A stretch of 64,000 nt of DNA, from assembly GCF_044704955.1 (NCBI RefSeq), contig NC_091995.1, positions 53,816,001 to 53,880,000 on the forward strand. Direction: 5' to 3'. The translations under genes and the position numbers were made by a program. Numbering within the stretch: the first letter of the stretch is position 1; each line of letters begins with the position of its first letter. Under the pieces are notes generated by a model. The model ran no database searches, had not been told where the DNA came from, and saw only the letters and a program-made list of their open reading frames with translations. The stretch comes from Pristiophorus japonicus. Lineage: Eukaryota. Below are positions 54,222 to 64,000 of the stretch, one piece after another.

Positions 54222-56605
54222 GAACAGGAGTAGGTCATTCAGACCCTCGAGCCTGTTCTGACATTCAGTTAGATCATGGCTCATCTGTATCTACCCACCT
54301 TGGTTCTGTAACCCTTAATAGTCTTGCCTATCAAAAATCTATCAATCTCAGTTAATAAGTATTTAATTGCCCCCAGCCTCAACAGCTTTTTAGGGAAGAG
54401 AATTACAGATTTGCACTCCCCATTGTGTGAAGAAGTGTTTCCTGACATCACACCTGAACAGCCTAGCTCTAATTTTAAGACTATGCCCTATTGTTCTGAA
54501 CTCCCCACCAGAGGAAACCGTTTCTCCCTATCTACTTGATCTTAAACTCCTCATTTAGATCACCACTTAATCTTCTATATTCAAGGGAATACAAACCCAG
54601 TCTATGCATCTAATTTAACCATTTTATCTCCGGTATCATTCTGGTGAATCTGTGCTGCACCCTCTCCAAGGTCAACATCATGGGCCCAAGTTTCCACAGG
54701 ATAAAAAACGGGCGCCCCTCCGAGCTGGGCGCCCGTTTTTCGCGCCTAAAACGGCGGCAGAATAAAAACGCGCTATTCTCGAGCGCTTTGCAGCTCCTTG
54801 TCTGTTTGGCGCGGCGCCCAGGGGGGCGGAGCCTACACTCGCGCCGATTTTGTAAGTGGGAGGGGGCGGGTACTATTTAAATTAGTTTTTTTCCTGCCGG
54901 CAAGGCTGCGCGTGCGCGTTGGAGCGTTCGCGCACGCGCAGTGTGAAAAAAACATTGGCACTCCACCATTTCTGTAGTTCTTTGTAGCTGTTTAATTTTT
55001 GAACATTTTTTAATAAAAGCACATTGCCATCAGCACTGAGGCTACCCTTCTCACTGTCTCCTTCCCCTCCCCACCCTCCGCGGCAACAAACCGCTGTCTC
55101 CTTCCCCTCCCCACCCTCCGCGGCAACAAACGGCTGTCTCCTTTCCCAACCCCCCCCCCGCAGGAATGAACGATGGCTGAAGCACTTTCACACAGGTAGG
55201 AAGATGGTTTATTTAATCTTTTCTTTGCTTATAAATGTTTATTCAGGTTGGATTTATTTGTATAATATTTGTAGAAGTATAAATAAGGATTTATTGTAGA
55301 ATTTAATGACTTCCCATTCCCCCCCCCCACCTCGTTCTGGACGCCTAATTTGTAACCTGCGCCTGATTTTTTAATGTGTAGAACAGGCTTTTTCAGTTCG
55401 ACAAAAATCTTCACTTGCTCCATTCTACTTTAGTTTGGAGTACATTTTCACTGTGGAAACTTTCAAATCAGGTGTCAGTGGCCGGACACGCTCCCTTTTG
55501 AAGAAAAAATTCTGTTCCAAAGTAGAACTGTTCTACCTGACCAGAACTGCAGAAAAAAAAATGTGGAGAATTGCGATTTCTAAGATAGTCCGTTCTCCAC
55601 CAGTTGCTCCTAAAAATCAGGCGCAAATCATGTGGAAACTTGGGCCCATTGTTCCTGAGGTGCGGTGCCCAGAACTGAACACATTGCTCTCGATGGGGTC
55701 TAACCAGAGCTCTATACAGCTGTAACGTAACTTCCACCCATCTGTATTCCAGCCCTCGAGATAAAGGCCAACATTCAATGAGCTTTTAAAATTATTTTTG
55801 TACCTGTCCACTCGATGTCTGTACCTGGACCCCTAAATCGCTCTGTTCATCCACAGTTCCCAGCTTTTCACCATTTGGAAATTACTCTGATCGATCTTTC
55901 CTGTGTGCAAAGTGGATGACCTCACACTTTCCCAGAGTTTTGCCCACTCACTTAATCAATGTCCCGTTGCAACTTTCTGCTCCCATCTACACTATTTACT
56001 GTGTCGCCTAACTTGGTGTTGTCAATAAACCTGGACAAAGGCTCCCTATTCCTTCATCCAAGTCATTTACAAATACAGTGAAAAGCTGAGGCCCCAGTAC
56101 AGATCCCTTGGGGACAGCACTAGTCACATTCTGTCAATTGGAGAATATAATCATTATCCCTACTCTCTGTCTCCTACCTCCTAACCAATTCCCTATCCAA
56201 CCTAGTAGGTTGCCTCAAATTCCATGCCCTCTCATTTTTGTTAACAGTATCTTACGTGCAACCTTATTGAACCTTCTGAAATTCCATACAAATAACATTC
56301 ACAGACATTCCTTTATCTACCATGTTAGTTATCTCCTCAAAAAATTCAACTAACTTCGTTCGACATGACTTACCCTTTACAAATCCATGCTGGCTCTCTC
56401 TGATCAGTTAATATTTGTCCAAGTGCTCAGTCACTCAGTCCCTAATATCAGATTCAAGTAACTTCCCCACAACTGACGTTAGACTAATAGGCCTATCATT
56501 TCTAGTTCATCTCTCCTACCGTTCTTAAATAATGGTGTGACATTGGCAGGCTTAAAATCCATGGGGACAATTCCTGAATCGAGAGAGTTTTGGAAAATCA
56601 TGACT
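54222..56605 (-). mobile_element. Old CR1 3'/RT fragment, interrupted by a TIR element
   Basis: LQLYRALVRPHREQCVQFWAPHL; decayed RT motifs to ~56600. Confidence 0.8.
54680..55649. mobile_element. Non-autonomous DNA transposon (MITE-like) with 19-bp TIRs
   Basis: ATGGGCCCAAGTTTCCACA (54680-54698) is the exact reverse complement of TGTGGAAACTTGGGCCCAT (55631-55649); it interrupts a CR1. Confidence 0.85.
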
Positions 56606-56687
56606 ATATTTGTAATGTTTTATATATTAATCTAGTTAGTTCCTTCACTTTCAACTTTGTTATCGCATATACTCCCGTGAAGCGCCT

Positions 56688-57390
56688 TAGAAACATAGAA
56701 ACATAGAAAATAGGTGCAGGAGTAGGCCATTCGGCCCTTCGAGCCTGCACCGCCATTCAACAAGATCATGGCTGATCACCCAGCACCTCCCCCCCACGCA
56801 CCCCCGACCCCCCCAGCCGCAAGGACCATATCCAACTCCCTCCCGAACACATCCAATGAACTGGCATCAACAACTCTCCGCCACAGGGATCCCCACAGGC
56901 CAACAACTCCCCGAGTGAAGAAGTCTCTCCCCATCCCAGCCTCAAACAGCCCACCCCCCATCCCCAGAGCGTGACCCCGCCCCCCCACCCCCCGGCTCCG
57001 GACCCACCCAACACGGGGAACACCCCCCCGAACCCAACCCGCCCTGTCCCGTCAGAATCCTTCCCAAATGCCGACCACCCCCGGATGTCGAGCCCCCAGC
57101 CCAGGCCACCCCGGAGCCACGCCCCCGCGACGTCAAGCACACCACATCCACCAACCGCCATCTACGCAGTCAACCCGTCCACCCCACTCCGAACATCCCC
57201 GCACCGAGGCACAGAGCCCCCAGGCCCGTCCCTCCAACACACTTTGCCCCCCCCCCAGACCTCCGCTGCAATGTGGCCGCTCCTGTCCCCCGCCCTGGGT
57301 TTCTCCGGTCCCCACCTCCACGACTCTCCCCTCCATCCCCTGCCCCCGTCTCCCCTCAACTTCCCTCTGCCTCCCTGCACAGGCTCCCAC
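56688..57390 (-). mobile_element. Internally deleted CR1 copy with strand-biased hypermutation
   Basis: CR1 tail and 3' end joined to the ORF1/ORF2 junction (compare 800-1105); many plus-strand T are C. Confidence 0.8.
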
Positions 57391-57552
57391 CTCGGGGGTG
57401 GTAACCTTCTGGGGCAGGGAATTTCAGCCCCCAGCGTGGAAGTCCTGCTCCCGCCGCAGAATTGGCCTTACCACCCGTCAATGGAAGCAGAGTGCAATTT
57501 CCCACACTCCACTTCCCTTGGAGGCAGTGACCAGGGCATGACTGGATGCTCA

Positions 57553-60500
57553 TGTGACAGTTTGAACTGGTGCTCTCCACTCTCTGTCCTGTGACAGTTT
57601 GAACTGGTGCTCTCCACTCTCTGTCCTGTGACAGTTTGAACTGGTGCTCTCCACTCTCTGTCCTGTGACAGTTTGAACTGGTGCTCTCCACTCTCCCGTC
57701 CTGTGACAGTTTGAACTGGTGCTCTCCACTCTCTGTCCTGTGACAGTTTGAACTGGTGCTCTCCACTCTCCCGTCCTGTGACAGTTTGAACTGGTGCTCT
57801 CCACTCTCTGTCCTGTGACAGTTTGAACTGGTGCTCTCCACTCTCTGTCCTGTGACAGTTTGAACTGGTGCTCTCCACTCTCCCGTCCTGTGACAGTTTG
57901 AACTGGTGCTCTCCACTCTCTGTCCTGTGACAGTTTGAACTGGTGCTCTCCACTCTCCCGTCCTGTGACAGTTTGAACTGGTGCTCTCCACTCTCTGTCC
58001 TGTGACAGTTGGAACTGGTGCTCTCCACTCTCTGTCCTGTGACAGTTTGAACTGGTGCTCTCCACTCTCTGTCCTGTGACAGTTTGAACTGGTGCTCTCC
58101 ACTCTCTCTCCTGTGACAGTTGGAACTGGTGCTCTCCATCTCTCTGTCCTGTGACAGTTTGAACTGGTGCTCTCCACTCTCTGTCCTGTGACAGTTTGAA
58201 CTGGTGCTCTCCACTCTCTCTCCTGTGACAGTTTGAACTGGTGCTCTCCACTCTCTCTCCTGTGATAGTTTGAACTGGTGCTCTCCACTCTCCGTCCTGT
58301 GACAGTTTGAACTGGTGCTCTCCACTCTCTCTCCTGTGATAGTTTGAACTGGTGCTCTCCACTCTCCGTCCTGTGACAGTTTGAACTGGTGCTCTCCACT
58401 CTCTGTCCTGTGACAGTTGGAACTGGTGCTCTCCACTCTCTGTCCTGTGACAGTTTGAACTGGTGCTCTCCACTCTCTGTCCTGTGACAGTTTGAACTGG
58501 TGCTCTCCACTCTCTGTCCTGTGACAGTTAGAACTGGTGCTCTCCACTCTCTGTCCTGTGACAGTTGGAACTGGTGCTCTCCACTCTCTGTCCTGTGACA
58601 GTTTGAACTGGTGCTCTCCACTCTCTGTCCTGTGACAGTTAGAACTGCTGCTCTCCACTCTCTGTCCTGTGACAGTTTGAACTGGTGCTCTCCACTGTCT
58701 GTCCTGTGACAGTTGGAACTGGTGCTCTCCACTCTCTGTCCTGAGACAGTTGGAACTGGTGCTCTCCACTCTCCCGTCCTGTGACAGTTTGAACTGGTGC
58801 TCTCCATTCTCCCATCCTGTGACAGTTGGAACTGGTGCTCTCCACTCTCCCGTCCTGTGACAGTTTGAACTGGTGCTCTCCACTCTCTGTCCTGTGACAG
58901 TTTGAACTGGTGCTCTCCACTCTCTGTCCTGTGACAATTTGAACTGGTGCTCTCCACTCTCTCTCCTGTGACAGTTTGAACTGGTGCTCTCCACTCTCTG
59001 TCCTGTGACAGTGTGAACTGGTGCTCTCCACTCTCTGTCCTGTGACAGTGTGAACTGGTGCTCTCCACTCTCCCGTCCTGTGACAGTTTGAACTGGTGCT
59101 CCCCACTCTCCCGTCCTGTGACAGTTTGAACTGGTGCTCTCCACTCTCCCGTCCTGTGACAGTTTGAACTGGTGCTCTCCACTCTCTGTCCTGTGACAGT
59201 TTGAACTGGTGCTCTCCACTCTCTGTCCTGTGACAATTTGAACTGGTGCTCTCCACTCTCTCTCCTGTGACAGTTTGAACTGGTGCTCTCCACTCTCTGT
59301 CCTGTGACAGTGTGAACTGGTGCTCTCCACTCTCTGTCCTGTGACAGTGTGAACTGGTGCTCTCCACTCTCCCGTCCTGTGACAGTTTGAACTGGTGCTC
59401 CCCACTCTCCCGTCCTGTGACAGTTTGAACTGGTGCTCTCCACTCTCTGTCCTGTGACAGTTTGAACTGGTGCTCTCCACTCTCTGTCCTGTGACAGTTG
59501 GAACTGGTGCTCTCCATCTCTCTCCTGTGACAGTTTGAACTGGTGCTCTCCACTCTCTGTCCTGTGACAGTTTGAACTGGTGCTCTCCACTCTCTGTCCT
59601 GTGACAGTTTGAACTGGTGCTCTTCACTCTCCCGTCCTGTGACAGTTTGAACTGATGCTCTCCACTCTCGGTCCTGTGACAGTTTGAACTGGTGCTCTCC
59701 ACTCTCCCGTCCTGTGACAGTTTGAACTGGTGCTCTCCACTCTCCCGTCCTGTGACAGTTTGAACTGGTGCTCTCCACTCTCTGTCCTGTGACAGTTTGA
59801 ACTGGTGCTCTCCACGCTCTGTCCTGTGACAGTTGGAACTGGTGCTCTCCACTCTCCCGTCCTGTGACAGTGTGAACTGGTGCTCTCCACTCTCTGTCCT
59901 GTGACAGTTTGAACTGGTGCTCTCCACTCTCTGTCCTGTGACAGTGTGAACTGGTGCTCTCCACTCTCTGACATGCGACAGTGTGAACTGGTGCTCTCCA
60001 CTCTCTGTACTGTGACAGTTTGAACTGGTGCTCTCCACTCTCTGTCCTGTGACAGTTTGAACTGGTGCTCTCCACTCTCTGTCCTGTGACAGTTTGAACT
60101 GGTGCTCTCCACTCTCCCGTCCTGTGACAGTTTGAACTGGTGCTCTCCACTCTCTGTCCTGTGACAGTTGGAACTGGTGCTCTCCACTCTCTGTCCTGTG
60201 ACAGTTGGAACTGGTGCTCTCCATCTCTCTCCTGTGACAGTTTGAACTGGTGCTCTCCACTCTCTGTCCTGCGACAGTTTGAACTGGTGCTCTCCACTCT
60301 CCCGTCCTGTGACAGTTTGAACTGGTGCTCTCCACTCTCTGTCCTGTGACAGTTAGAACTGGTGCTCTCCACTCTCTGTCCTGTGACAGTTTGAACTGGT
60401 GCTCTCCACTCTCTGTCCTGTGACAGTTTGAACTGGTGCTCTCCACTCTCTGTCCTGTGACAGTTGGAACTGGTGCTCTCCATCTCTCTCCTGTGACAGT

Positions 60501-63500
60501 TTGAACTGGTGCTCCCCACTCTCTGTCCTGTGACAGTTAGAACTGGTGCTCTCCACTCTCTGTCCTGTGACAGTTTGAACTGGTGCTCTCCACTCTCTGT
60601 CCTGTGACAGTTTGAACTGGTGTTCTCCACTCTATGTCCTTTGACAGTTTGAACTGGTGCTCTCCACTCTCTGTCCTGTGACAGTTTGAACTGGTGCTCC
60701 CCACTCTCCCGTCCTGTGACAGTTTGAACTGGTGCTCTCCACTCTCTGTCCTGTGACAGTTTGAACTGGTGCTCTCCACTCTCTGTCCTGTGACAGTTGG
60801 AACTGGTGCTCTCCATCTCTCTCCTGTGACAGTTTGAACTGGTGCTCTCCACTCTCTGTCCTGTGACAGTTTGAACTGGTGCTCTCCACTCTCTGTCCTG
60901 TGACTGTTTGAACTGGTGCTCTCCACTCTCCCGTCCTGTGACAGTTTGAACTGATGCTCTCCACTCTCGGTCCTGTGACAGTTTGAACTGGTGCTCTCCA
61001 CTCTCCCGTCCTGTGACAGTTTGAACTGGTGCTCTCCACTCTCTGTCCTGTGACAGTTTGAACTGGTGTTCCCCACTCTCTGTCCTGTGACAGTTTGAAC
61101 TGATGCTCTCCACTCTCTGTCCTGTGACAGTGTGAACTGGTGCTCTCCACTCTCTGTCCTGTGACAGTGGGAACTGGTGCTCTCCACTCTCTGTCCTGTG
61201 ACAGTTTGAACTGGTGCTCTCCACTCTCTGTCCTGTGACAGTTGGAACTGGTGCTCTCCACTCTCTGTCCTGTGACAGTTGGAACTGGTGCTCTCCATCT
61301 CTCTCCTGTGACAGTTTGAACTGGTGCTCTCCACTCTCTGTCCTGCGACAGTTTGAACTGGTGCTCTCCACTCTCCCGTCCTGTGACAGTTTGAACTGGT
61401 GCTCTCCACTCTCTGTCCTGTGACAGTTAGAACTGGTGCTCTCCACTCTCTGTCCTGTGACAGTTTGAACTGGTGCTCTCCACTCTCTGTCCTGTGACAG
61501 TTTGAACTGGTGCTCTCCACTCTCTGTCCTGTGACAGTTGGAACTGGTGCTCTCCATCTCTCTCCTGTGACAGTTTGAACTGGTGCTCCCCACTCTCTGT
61601 CCTGTGACAGTTTGAACTGGTGCTCTCCACTCTCTGTCCTGTGACAGTTTGAACTGGTGCTCTCCACTCTCTGTCCTGTGACAGTTTGAACTGGTGTTCT
61701 CCACTCTATGTCCTTTGACAGTTTGAACTGGTGCTCTCCACTCTCTGTCCTGTGATAGTTTGAACTGGTGCTCTCCACTCTCTGTCCTGTGACAGTTTGA
61801 ACTGGTGTTCTCCACTCTATGTCCTGTGACAGTTTGAACTGGTGCTCTCCACTCTCTGTCCTGTGACAGTGTGAACTGGTGCTCTCCACTCTCTGTCCTG
61901 TGACAGTGTGAACTGGTGCTCTCCACTCTCCCGTCCTGTGACAGTTTGAACTGGTGCTCCCCACTCTCCCGTCCTGTGACAGTTTGAACTGGTGCTCTCC
62001 ACTCTCTGTCCTGTGACAGTTTGAACTGGTGCTCTCCACTCTCTGTCCTGTGACAGTTGGAACTGGTGCTCTCCATCTCTCTCCTGTGACAGTTTGAACT
62101 GGTGCTCTCCACTCTCTGTCCTGTGACAGTTTGAACTGGTGCTCTCCACTCTCTGTCCTGTGACTGTTTGAACTGGTGCTCTCCACTCTCCCGTCCTGTG
62201 ACAGTTTGAACTGATGCTCTCCACTCTCGGTCCTGTGACAGTTTGAACTGGTGCTCTCCACTCTCCCGTCCTGTGACAGTTTGAACTGGTGCTCTCCACT
62301 CTCTGTCCTGTGACAGTTTGAACTGGTGTTCCCCACTCTCTGTCCTGTGACAGTTTGAACTGATGCTCTCCACTCTCTGTCCTGTGACAGTGTGAACTGG
62401 TGCTCTCCACTCTCTGTCCTGTGACAGTGGGAACTGGTGCTCTCCACTCTCTGTCCTGTGACAGTGTGAACTGGTGCTCTCCACTCTCTGTCCTGTGACA
62501 GTTTGAACTGGTGCTCTCCACTCTCTGTCCTGTGACAGTTTGAACTGGTGCTGTCCACTCTCTGTCCTGTGACAGTTTGAACTGGTGCTCTCCACTCTCC
62601 CGTCCTGTGACAGTTTGAACTGGTGCTCTCCACTCTCTGTCCTGTGACAGTGGGAACTGGTGCTCTCCACTCTCTGTCCTGTGACAGTTGGAACTGGTGC
62701 TCTCCACTCTCTGTCCTGTGACAGTTTGAACTGGTGCTCTCCACTCTCTGTCCTGTGACAGTTGGAACTGGTGCTCTCCACTCTCCCGTCCTGTGACAGT
62801 GTGAACTGGTGCTCTCACTCTCTGTCCTGTGACAGTTTGAACTGGTGCTCTCCACTCTCTGTCCTGTGACAGTTTGAACTGGTGCTCTCCACTCTCTGTC
62901 CTGTGACAGTGTGAACTGGTGCTCTCCACTCTCTGTCCTGTGACAGTTTGAACTGGTGCTCTCCACTCTCCCGTCCTGTGACAGTTTGAACTGGTGCTCT
63001 CCACTCTCCCGTCCTGTGACAGTTTGAACTGGTGCTCTCCACTCTCTGTCCTGTGACAGTTGGAACTGGTGCTCTCCACTCTCTGTCCTGTGACAGTTGG
63101 AACTGGTGCGCTCCATCTCTCTCCTGTGACAGTTTGAACTGGTGCTCTCCACTCTCTGTCCTGTGACAGTTTGAACTGGTGCTCTCCACTCTCTCTCCTG
63201 TGATAGTTTGAACTGGTGTTCTCCACTCTCCCGTCCTGTGACAGTTTGAACTGGTGCTCTCCACTCTCTGTCCTGTGACAGTTTGAACTGGTGCTCTCCA
63301 CTCTCTGTCCTGTGACAGTTTGAACTGGTGCTCTCCACTCTCTCTCCTGTGATAGTTTGAACTGGTGCTCTCCACTCTCTGTCCTGTGACAGTTTGAACT
63401 GGTGCTCTCCACTCTCTCTCCTGTGACAGTTGGAACTGGTGCTCTCCACTCTCTGTCCTGTGACAGTGTGAACTGGTGCTCTCCACTCTCTGTCCTGTGA

Positions 63501-64000
63501 CAGTGTGAACTGGTGCTCTCCACTCTCCCGTCCTGTGACAGTTTGAACTGGTGCTCCCCACTCTCCCGTCCTGTGACAGTTTGAACTGGTGCTCTCCACT
63601 CTCTGTCCTGTGACAGTTTGAACTGGTGCTCTCCACTCTCTGTCCTGTGACAGTTGGAACTGGTGCTCTCCATCTCTCTCCTGTGACAGTTTGAACTGGT
63701 GCTCTCCACTCTCTGTCCTGTGACAGTTTGAACTGGTGCTCTCCACTCTCTGTCCTGTGACTGTTTGAACTGGTGCTCTCCACTCTCCCGTCCTGTGACA
63801 GTTTGAACTGATGCTCTCCACTCTCGGTCCTGTGACAGTTTGAACTGGTGCTCTCCACTCTCCCGTCCTGTGACAGTTTGAACTGGTGCTCTCCACTCTC
63901 TGTCCTGTGACAGTTTGAACTGGTGTTCCCCACTCTCTGTCCTGTGACAGTTTGAACTGATGCTCTCCACTCTCTGTCCTGTGACAGTGTGAACTGGTGC
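57553..64000. repeat. 37-bp satellite (TGTGACAGTTTGAACTGGTGCTCTCCACTCTCTGTCC)n, running off the window end
   Basis: More than 6.4 kb of tandem units; blocks of variant units recur (60140/61214, period 1074). Confidence 0.97.

Follow-up and report, generated by a model that had tools for sequence, protein, structure and literature searches.

The 64,000-nucleotide stretch of Pristiophorus japonicus DNA analysed here (the window) contains one member of a composite, non-coding retroposon family of more than 900 copies. This family was very probably founded by a single CR1 RNA that had been hyper-edited and then reverse-transcribed into germline DNA, with ADAR as the enzyme suggested by the trace left in the sequence. 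An earlier note on this DNA had proposed one CR1 copy at 56780..57390 with changes made by editing of its RNA before reverse transcription, and this proposal is partly supported. The cause that it named has strong support from the kinds of substitution seen, from the preference for certain neighbouring bases, from nine independently edited insertions, and from a fold-back locus whose loop is spared. The edited molecule, however, was not the window copy's own RNA, and the changes are not private but common to a family of at least 900 copies. The window copy inherited its changes: they were already present in the founder of a family of approximately 1,600 dispersed copies, and the finding is thus larger than first noted.

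The window copy is an antisense LINE on the plus strand, and the repeat at position 56688 is the LINE 3′ tail. Read 5′ to 3′ on the RNA strand, the element consists of a 37-bp tandem array, a MITE-like piece of ~160 bp, a CR1 5′ piece, a deletion of ~2.35 kb, a CR1 3′ piece, and the tail. The region is CR1-derived as first described, but it is made of two pieces across the deletion and the element extends beyond 57390. The features are the following.

56688..56775, minus strand: CR1 3′ tail, terminal 8-nt repeats and ~75 nt of 3′ UTR, almost unedited (1/15 A changed in the window copy, 1/16 in the family consensus)
56776..57059, minus strand: hyper-edited CR1 3′ piece, made of the ~95 final ORF2 codons plus the beginning of the 3′ UTR (consensus compared with parent piece)
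57057..57062, minus strand: deletion junction, ~2,350 bp of ORF2 removed, 3-nt microhomology (from tail-to-anchor spacing)
57060..57391, minus strand: hyper-edited CR1 5′ piece, made of the spacer that follows ORF1 plus the first part of the endonuclease domain (consensus compared with parent piece; parent frame with Pfam Exo_endo_phos)
57392..57552, minus strand: ~160 bp from a diverged MITE-like repeat, containing an internal hairpin and free of hyper-editing (free-standing relatives at ~64-80% identity)
57553..64000, minus strand: 37-bp tandem array, the variable 5′ part of the element (TRF period 37, 173.6 copies inside the window)

The two CR1 pieces, of 330 bp (spacer after ORF1 and endonuclease start) and 370 bp (ORF2 end, 3′ UTR, and tail), match one single CR1 subfamily. 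Twelve parent copies have 2,858 bp between tail and anchor, and the family has 507 bp. In an alignment of 358 positions between family consensus and parent, the 3′ piece including the tail shows 58 plus-strand T-to-C changes and 11 of other kinds; for the 5′ piece the figures are 82 and 12 in 333 aligned positions. The plus strand from 56801 to 57400 is ~51% C. The MITE-like piece shows one T-to-C change among 29 T and one A-to-G change among 21 A relative to the consensus of 13 free-standing relatives, and it has no match in Rfam. The array of the window copy contains ~806 units in full (~30 kb) and extends ~23.7 kb beyond the window end, while the array of a duplicated locus (L002/L033) contains 165 units; the array length has therefore changed after insertion. 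The flanks of the window copy rejoin to one target site, so that it is a daughter insertion and not the source. A segmental duplicate of the window (L002, L033, L035, L065) lies at G000:C19:52876000-52930000, ~0.95 Mb away, and is partly inverted. The family may seed minisatellite arrays across the genome.

For the parent consensus, near-full-length copies were taken from the nearest CR1 subfamily without editing, at the 12 of 20 loci that passed a spacing filter; the subfamily is itself only 3.2% diverged. One parent copy (L212) encodes an APE endonuclease and a reverse transcriptase (Pfam Exo_endo_phos, E 2.6e-11; RVT_1, E 3.3e-23). The ORF1 frames at 6 of 24 loci contain GDS and GTND motifs, which we take to be those of an esterase. 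The 8-nt tail repeat was read directly in the sequence; the CR1 label itself is presumed from this anatomy. A sister copy in the window at ~700-1300 was considered as the closest parent and set aside, as it leaves 34 other differences versus 12 with the better subfamily.

The changes are almost entirely of one kind. Both base changes quoted in the earlier note are present in the sequence, and the dense sense-strand A-to-G change that it described was recovered against the consensus of the 12 parent copies, at 127 of 211 A in the window copy. The reciprocal change is as rare as was claimed, only 3 of 139 T being changed to C (Fisher p 1e-33), and every other kind of change is counted at most 9 times. 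The family consensus gives the same spectrum on the sense strand, with A-to-G at 138/218 and T-to-C at 2/140 (p 3e-38) and no other change above 6. The terminal tail is nearly unchanged, again as first observed, with one change among 15 A in the last 74 nt of the window copy and one edit among 16 A in the last 74 nt of the family consensus. An APOBEC-edited retroelement was rejected as a description of the family, G-to-A being found at 6/218 versus A-to-G at 138/218.

Editing also depends on the neighbouring base. The neighbour-context check proposed with the original observation gives, for the window copy, edited fractions of 30/35 after U, 45/62 after A, 23/42 after C, and 29/67 after G (p 6e-5), and the corresponding fractions for the family are 31/35, 50/67, 28/44, and 29/69 (p 6e-6). 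This 5′ order of U, A, C, and G agrees with the preference of ADAR, for which one report describes a preference for 5′ U or A and a depletion of upstream G (PMC5663115). As the 5′-G class makes no CpG, CpG decay cannot account for the neighbour order. Of 73 A followed by G in the family, 51 are edited, which is no significant preference (p 0.39). Editing raised the CpG count of the core (56776-57391) from 13 to 40 and gave the core consensus a 217-codon, Gly-rich, stop-free frame and four G-quadruplex-type motifs, none of which occur in the parent pieces; function is not claimed for either.

The scan for similar copies that the earlier note had recommended revealed both a dispersed family and independently edited CR1 insertions. 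A genome search with 56600-57500 returned 40 scored matches, namely the window and 39 others; these 39 have 89-92% identity, nearly all over ~810 bp, and hold the C bases in common. An internal 24-mer has 909 exact matches in the genome and a junction motif has 915 with at most one mismatch, whereas the reversed control of each has none. On contig C1 the two motifs have 79 and 87 matches, of which 45 overlap, and mark-recapture from these counts gives ~1,600 copies, a rough and likely low estimate. For scoring, forty copies were picked along C1 by order of position; they lie on average 3.4% from their consensus, with CpG decay, and retain 0-9 T each at the 140 edited sites. The tail is present in 40/40 copies picked by the internal motif and is rearranged in one. 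Of these copies 25 extend to the array and 15 end earlier, and their 5′ ends are variable. Behind 31 array ends (the L094 array end being left out) there was no source locus and no common 5′ head, which means that every copy seen is 5′-truncated. Pre-insertion targets rejoin at several family loci as well as at the window site. Several family copies (L003, L004, L006, L014, L030, and others) are nested in other CR1 copies, and one (L113) has its tail region repeated in inverted orientation.

All 48 scored copies hold nearly all of the edits, which points to one founder, and no intermediates occur among them. The junction motif matches exactly at 8 of its 915 loci; these eight copies have T at that one site and are fully edited everywhere else. 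A precursor carrying the junction in an unedited or half-edited state was not found. The transposition proteins are not intact, with 2.35 kb of ORF2 gone and the remaining codons Gly-rich. No Pol III head of tRNA or 5S type was seen in Rfam searches and at the 31 array ends, among copies that all lack a complete 5′ end. A second sample of the same organism, from another study (X5), has contigs over 29 of 30 bins of the stretch. In runs from six other organisms, coverage was largely limited to the tail or to short fragments, and contigs cannot show absence.

Ordinary CR1 insertions carry the same kind of change independently of the family. A motif with three forced edits, placed outside the span of the family, identified nine loci (L186-L194), all ordinary CR1 insertions, with 29-166 plus-strand T-to-C changes versus 1-11 A-to-G changes each, differing tract limits, and discordant site patterns. 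Their context was pooled with motif sites excluded and with only sites inside edited tracts counted. By 5′ neighbour, the edited share is 182/211 after U (0.86), 186/240 after A (0.78), 142/269 after C (0.53), and 200/475 after G (0.42); by 3′ neighbour, it is 306/463 for G (0.66) and 0.65 for A versus 0.49 for U and 0.52 for C (p 3e-6). A site that is edited in the family has a raised chance of being edited in the nine copies as well (odds ratio 3.0, p 2e-5). In one of them (L191) 166 of 274 sites are edited, and because a single insertion thereby reaches the edit density of the family, one round of editing is enough. The last 75 nt contain at most two edits in eight of the nine copies; in the ninth (L188) 7 of 13 tail sites are edited, which shows that a single insertion does not strictly require a tail free of edits. 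In most of the nine copies editing sets in 200-300 nt away from the 3′ end, deeper inside the element than it does in the family.

A tenth edited locus is of the fold-back type. The reciprocal motif has one match in the genome, an inverted pair of CR1 pieces (L195-L197, G000:C22:17897300-17901800). Its two arms are changed from A to G on the same strand, at 133/253 and 138/297, and the unpaired loop is changed at 0/67. The first edit lies 2 nt inside the paired region, counted from the end of the partner arm, and the 5′ neighbour order is U and A, then C, then G. Such a pattern would be expected from a fold-back RNA acted on by a duplex-specific deaminase, and it is a double-stranded-RNA signature. 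Weaker A-to-G change continues for another ~1 kb along the left element, past the paired range, and is not explained by retained sequence. A SINE-like piece follows the pair, and its tail may have primed reverse transcription.

A mechanism for the origin of the family can be proposed from these observations. A CR1 transcript would have paired with antisense CR1 sequence, and ~63% of its adenosines would have been deaminated, the last ~75 nt being spared; the element does not include the antisense partner of the founder RNA. The CR1 reverse transcriptase would then have read inosine as G. The core, lacking 2.35 kb of ORF2, was joined to the MITE-like piece and the 37-bp array, as is seen in the structure; the deletion and the joining may have come before or after the editing. 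The chimera would have been transcribed through the array from an upstream promoter, none of which was found. The CR1 ORF2 protein, acting in trans, would have recognized the intact tail, which judging from sequence is likely to be its recognition site, and target-primed reverse transcription would have produced copies with a common 3′ end and variable 5′ cut points, as the anatomy of the copies suggests. The copies have since drifted ~3.4% from consensus with CpG decay, and some arrays have grown in place.

Three other explanations can be weighed against this origin. The strongest of them, although improbable, is a single burst of change on the founder by other chemistry, either an error burst of the reverse transcriptase or the action of an unknown adenine deaminase on sense DNA during integration. 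The analysis saw DNA only, none of the listed runs that contain the stretch being recorded as RNA, and one study reports that ADAR can edit DNA in the DNA:RNA hybrids of model substrates (PMC12925331). Edited first-strand cDNA, however, would read as sense T-to-C, which is seen at only 2/140 positions, and the fold-back locus, altered in its paired arms with the loop spared, needs a fold-back duplex. The ADAR-like 5′ order moreover recurs in three separate data sets. It is less probable still that the core became G-rich gradually, by GC-biased gene conversion, slippage in G-runs, or selection for G-rich RNA over many source generations. The gain of four G-quadruplex-type motifs, a motif count only, and a further A-to-G excess among copies (59/4981 versus T-to-C 38/9072) would fit such a course. 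Against it stand the absence of intermediates in 48 copies, the 3.2% divergence of the parent subfamily, which leaves little time, and the single insertion that reaches the same density in one step. Gene conversion is strand-symmetric, and the strand asymmetry thus speaks against it, as was argued from the start.

The least probable explanation, with a negligible share of our confidence, is that the window copy's own RNA was edited or that sequencing or assembly produced the C calls as an artefact, the latter having originally been named as the main alternative. None of the listed contig pieces runs from one end of the stretch to the other, and the second sample supports the bases shared by the family and not the private bases of the window copy. 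The same C bases nevertheless occur at more than 900 loci, on many contigs and both strands; copy number and the contigs of the second sample together show that the family is not an assembly artefact, and editing of the window copy's own RNA is refuted by the state common to the copies. The feature is real, a retroposon family of this genome that was likely founded by a hyper-edited RNA.

Editing of the family may have continued during its spread. At one array end (L121/L183) the terminal array unit of L121 is separately edited, with eight T-to-C changes and no other change, and a genome-wide search with the edited-unit motif returned L121 and two more partly edited units (L184, L185). Low-frequency changes were scored in 67 copies, three of 70 having been dropped. 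They amount to 59/4981 for A-to-G versus 38/9072 for T-to-C in the core, and to 26/2010 versus 7/1535 in the MITE-like piece; ordinary CR1 copies have no such low-frequency A-to-G bias. The excess in the core is without ADAR context, and G-runs may be its cause. The edited array units suggest later editing of family RNA; the low-frequency excess is only suggestive.

Deaminase scars in mobile elements are known from several systems. APOBEC editing of LTR elements reads as G-to-A on the sense strand. The APOBEC-edited LTR retroelements of vertebrates (Knisbacher and Levanon, PMC4866542) resemble the present family in carrying clustered, strand-specific deaminase scars in germline copies, whereas the change here is A-to-G, the element is non-LTR, and the edited molecule founded a family; ADAR is not mentioned in that text. 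Avian retroviruses with A-to-G hypermutation (PMC12925331) had about half of their adenosines converted to G in RNA that was then reverse-transcribed, with a link to inverted repeats. Those viruses are exogenous, in contrast to the heritable LINE derivative of more than 900 copies found here. The hyper-editing of Alu inverted repeats involves long duplexes, dense editing, and depletion of 5′ G (PMC5663115, PMC3820591). It normally occurs in RNA only, whereas here it is written in DNA.

In organization, the family recalls the SVA and LAVA elements of apes, non-autonomous composites of a tandem-repeat region and repeat pieces that are moved by a LINE in trans. This likeness implies no sequence relation, and the family differs in having CR1 as its partner, an 8-nt repeat tail in place of poly(A), and a core that is a hyper-edited LINE deletion derivative. 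The HE1 and HER1 SINEs of sharks and rays have a LINE-derived 3′ end, as expected under stringent recognition (PMC3747384); in contrast to them, no tRNA-derived head was seen in the family (Rfam; 31 array ends).

The roles of editing by ADAR in how retroposon subfamilies evolve were described as not determined in a 2016 review (PMC4982230), and in the openly accessible literature, judged by listings and abstract starts, no ADAR-edited founder of a retroposon family was found. The present family is a direct candidate for such a role, in which one event would have fixed 138 changes, ~20% of the core, that were copied ~1,600 times. RNA editing would thus become heritable through retrotransposition, and the 'age' of a repeat estimated from divergence can be badly inflated. 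Edited CR1 fossils would record which germline RNAs were double-stranded, and the edit boundary maps the part of the CR1 tail (~75 nt) that was likely needed intact for amplification. We tentatively favour a wider interpretation, in which CR1 reverse transcription routinely carries ADAR edits into the germline genome of this lineage and an SVA-like family of ~1,600 copies arose from one hyper-edited RNA. The family would then be the one-step product of an anti-duplex defence; its 20% divergence from CR1 may have favoured it by weakening its pairing with small RNAs and with antisense CR1 RNA, and editing would have gone on during its spread.
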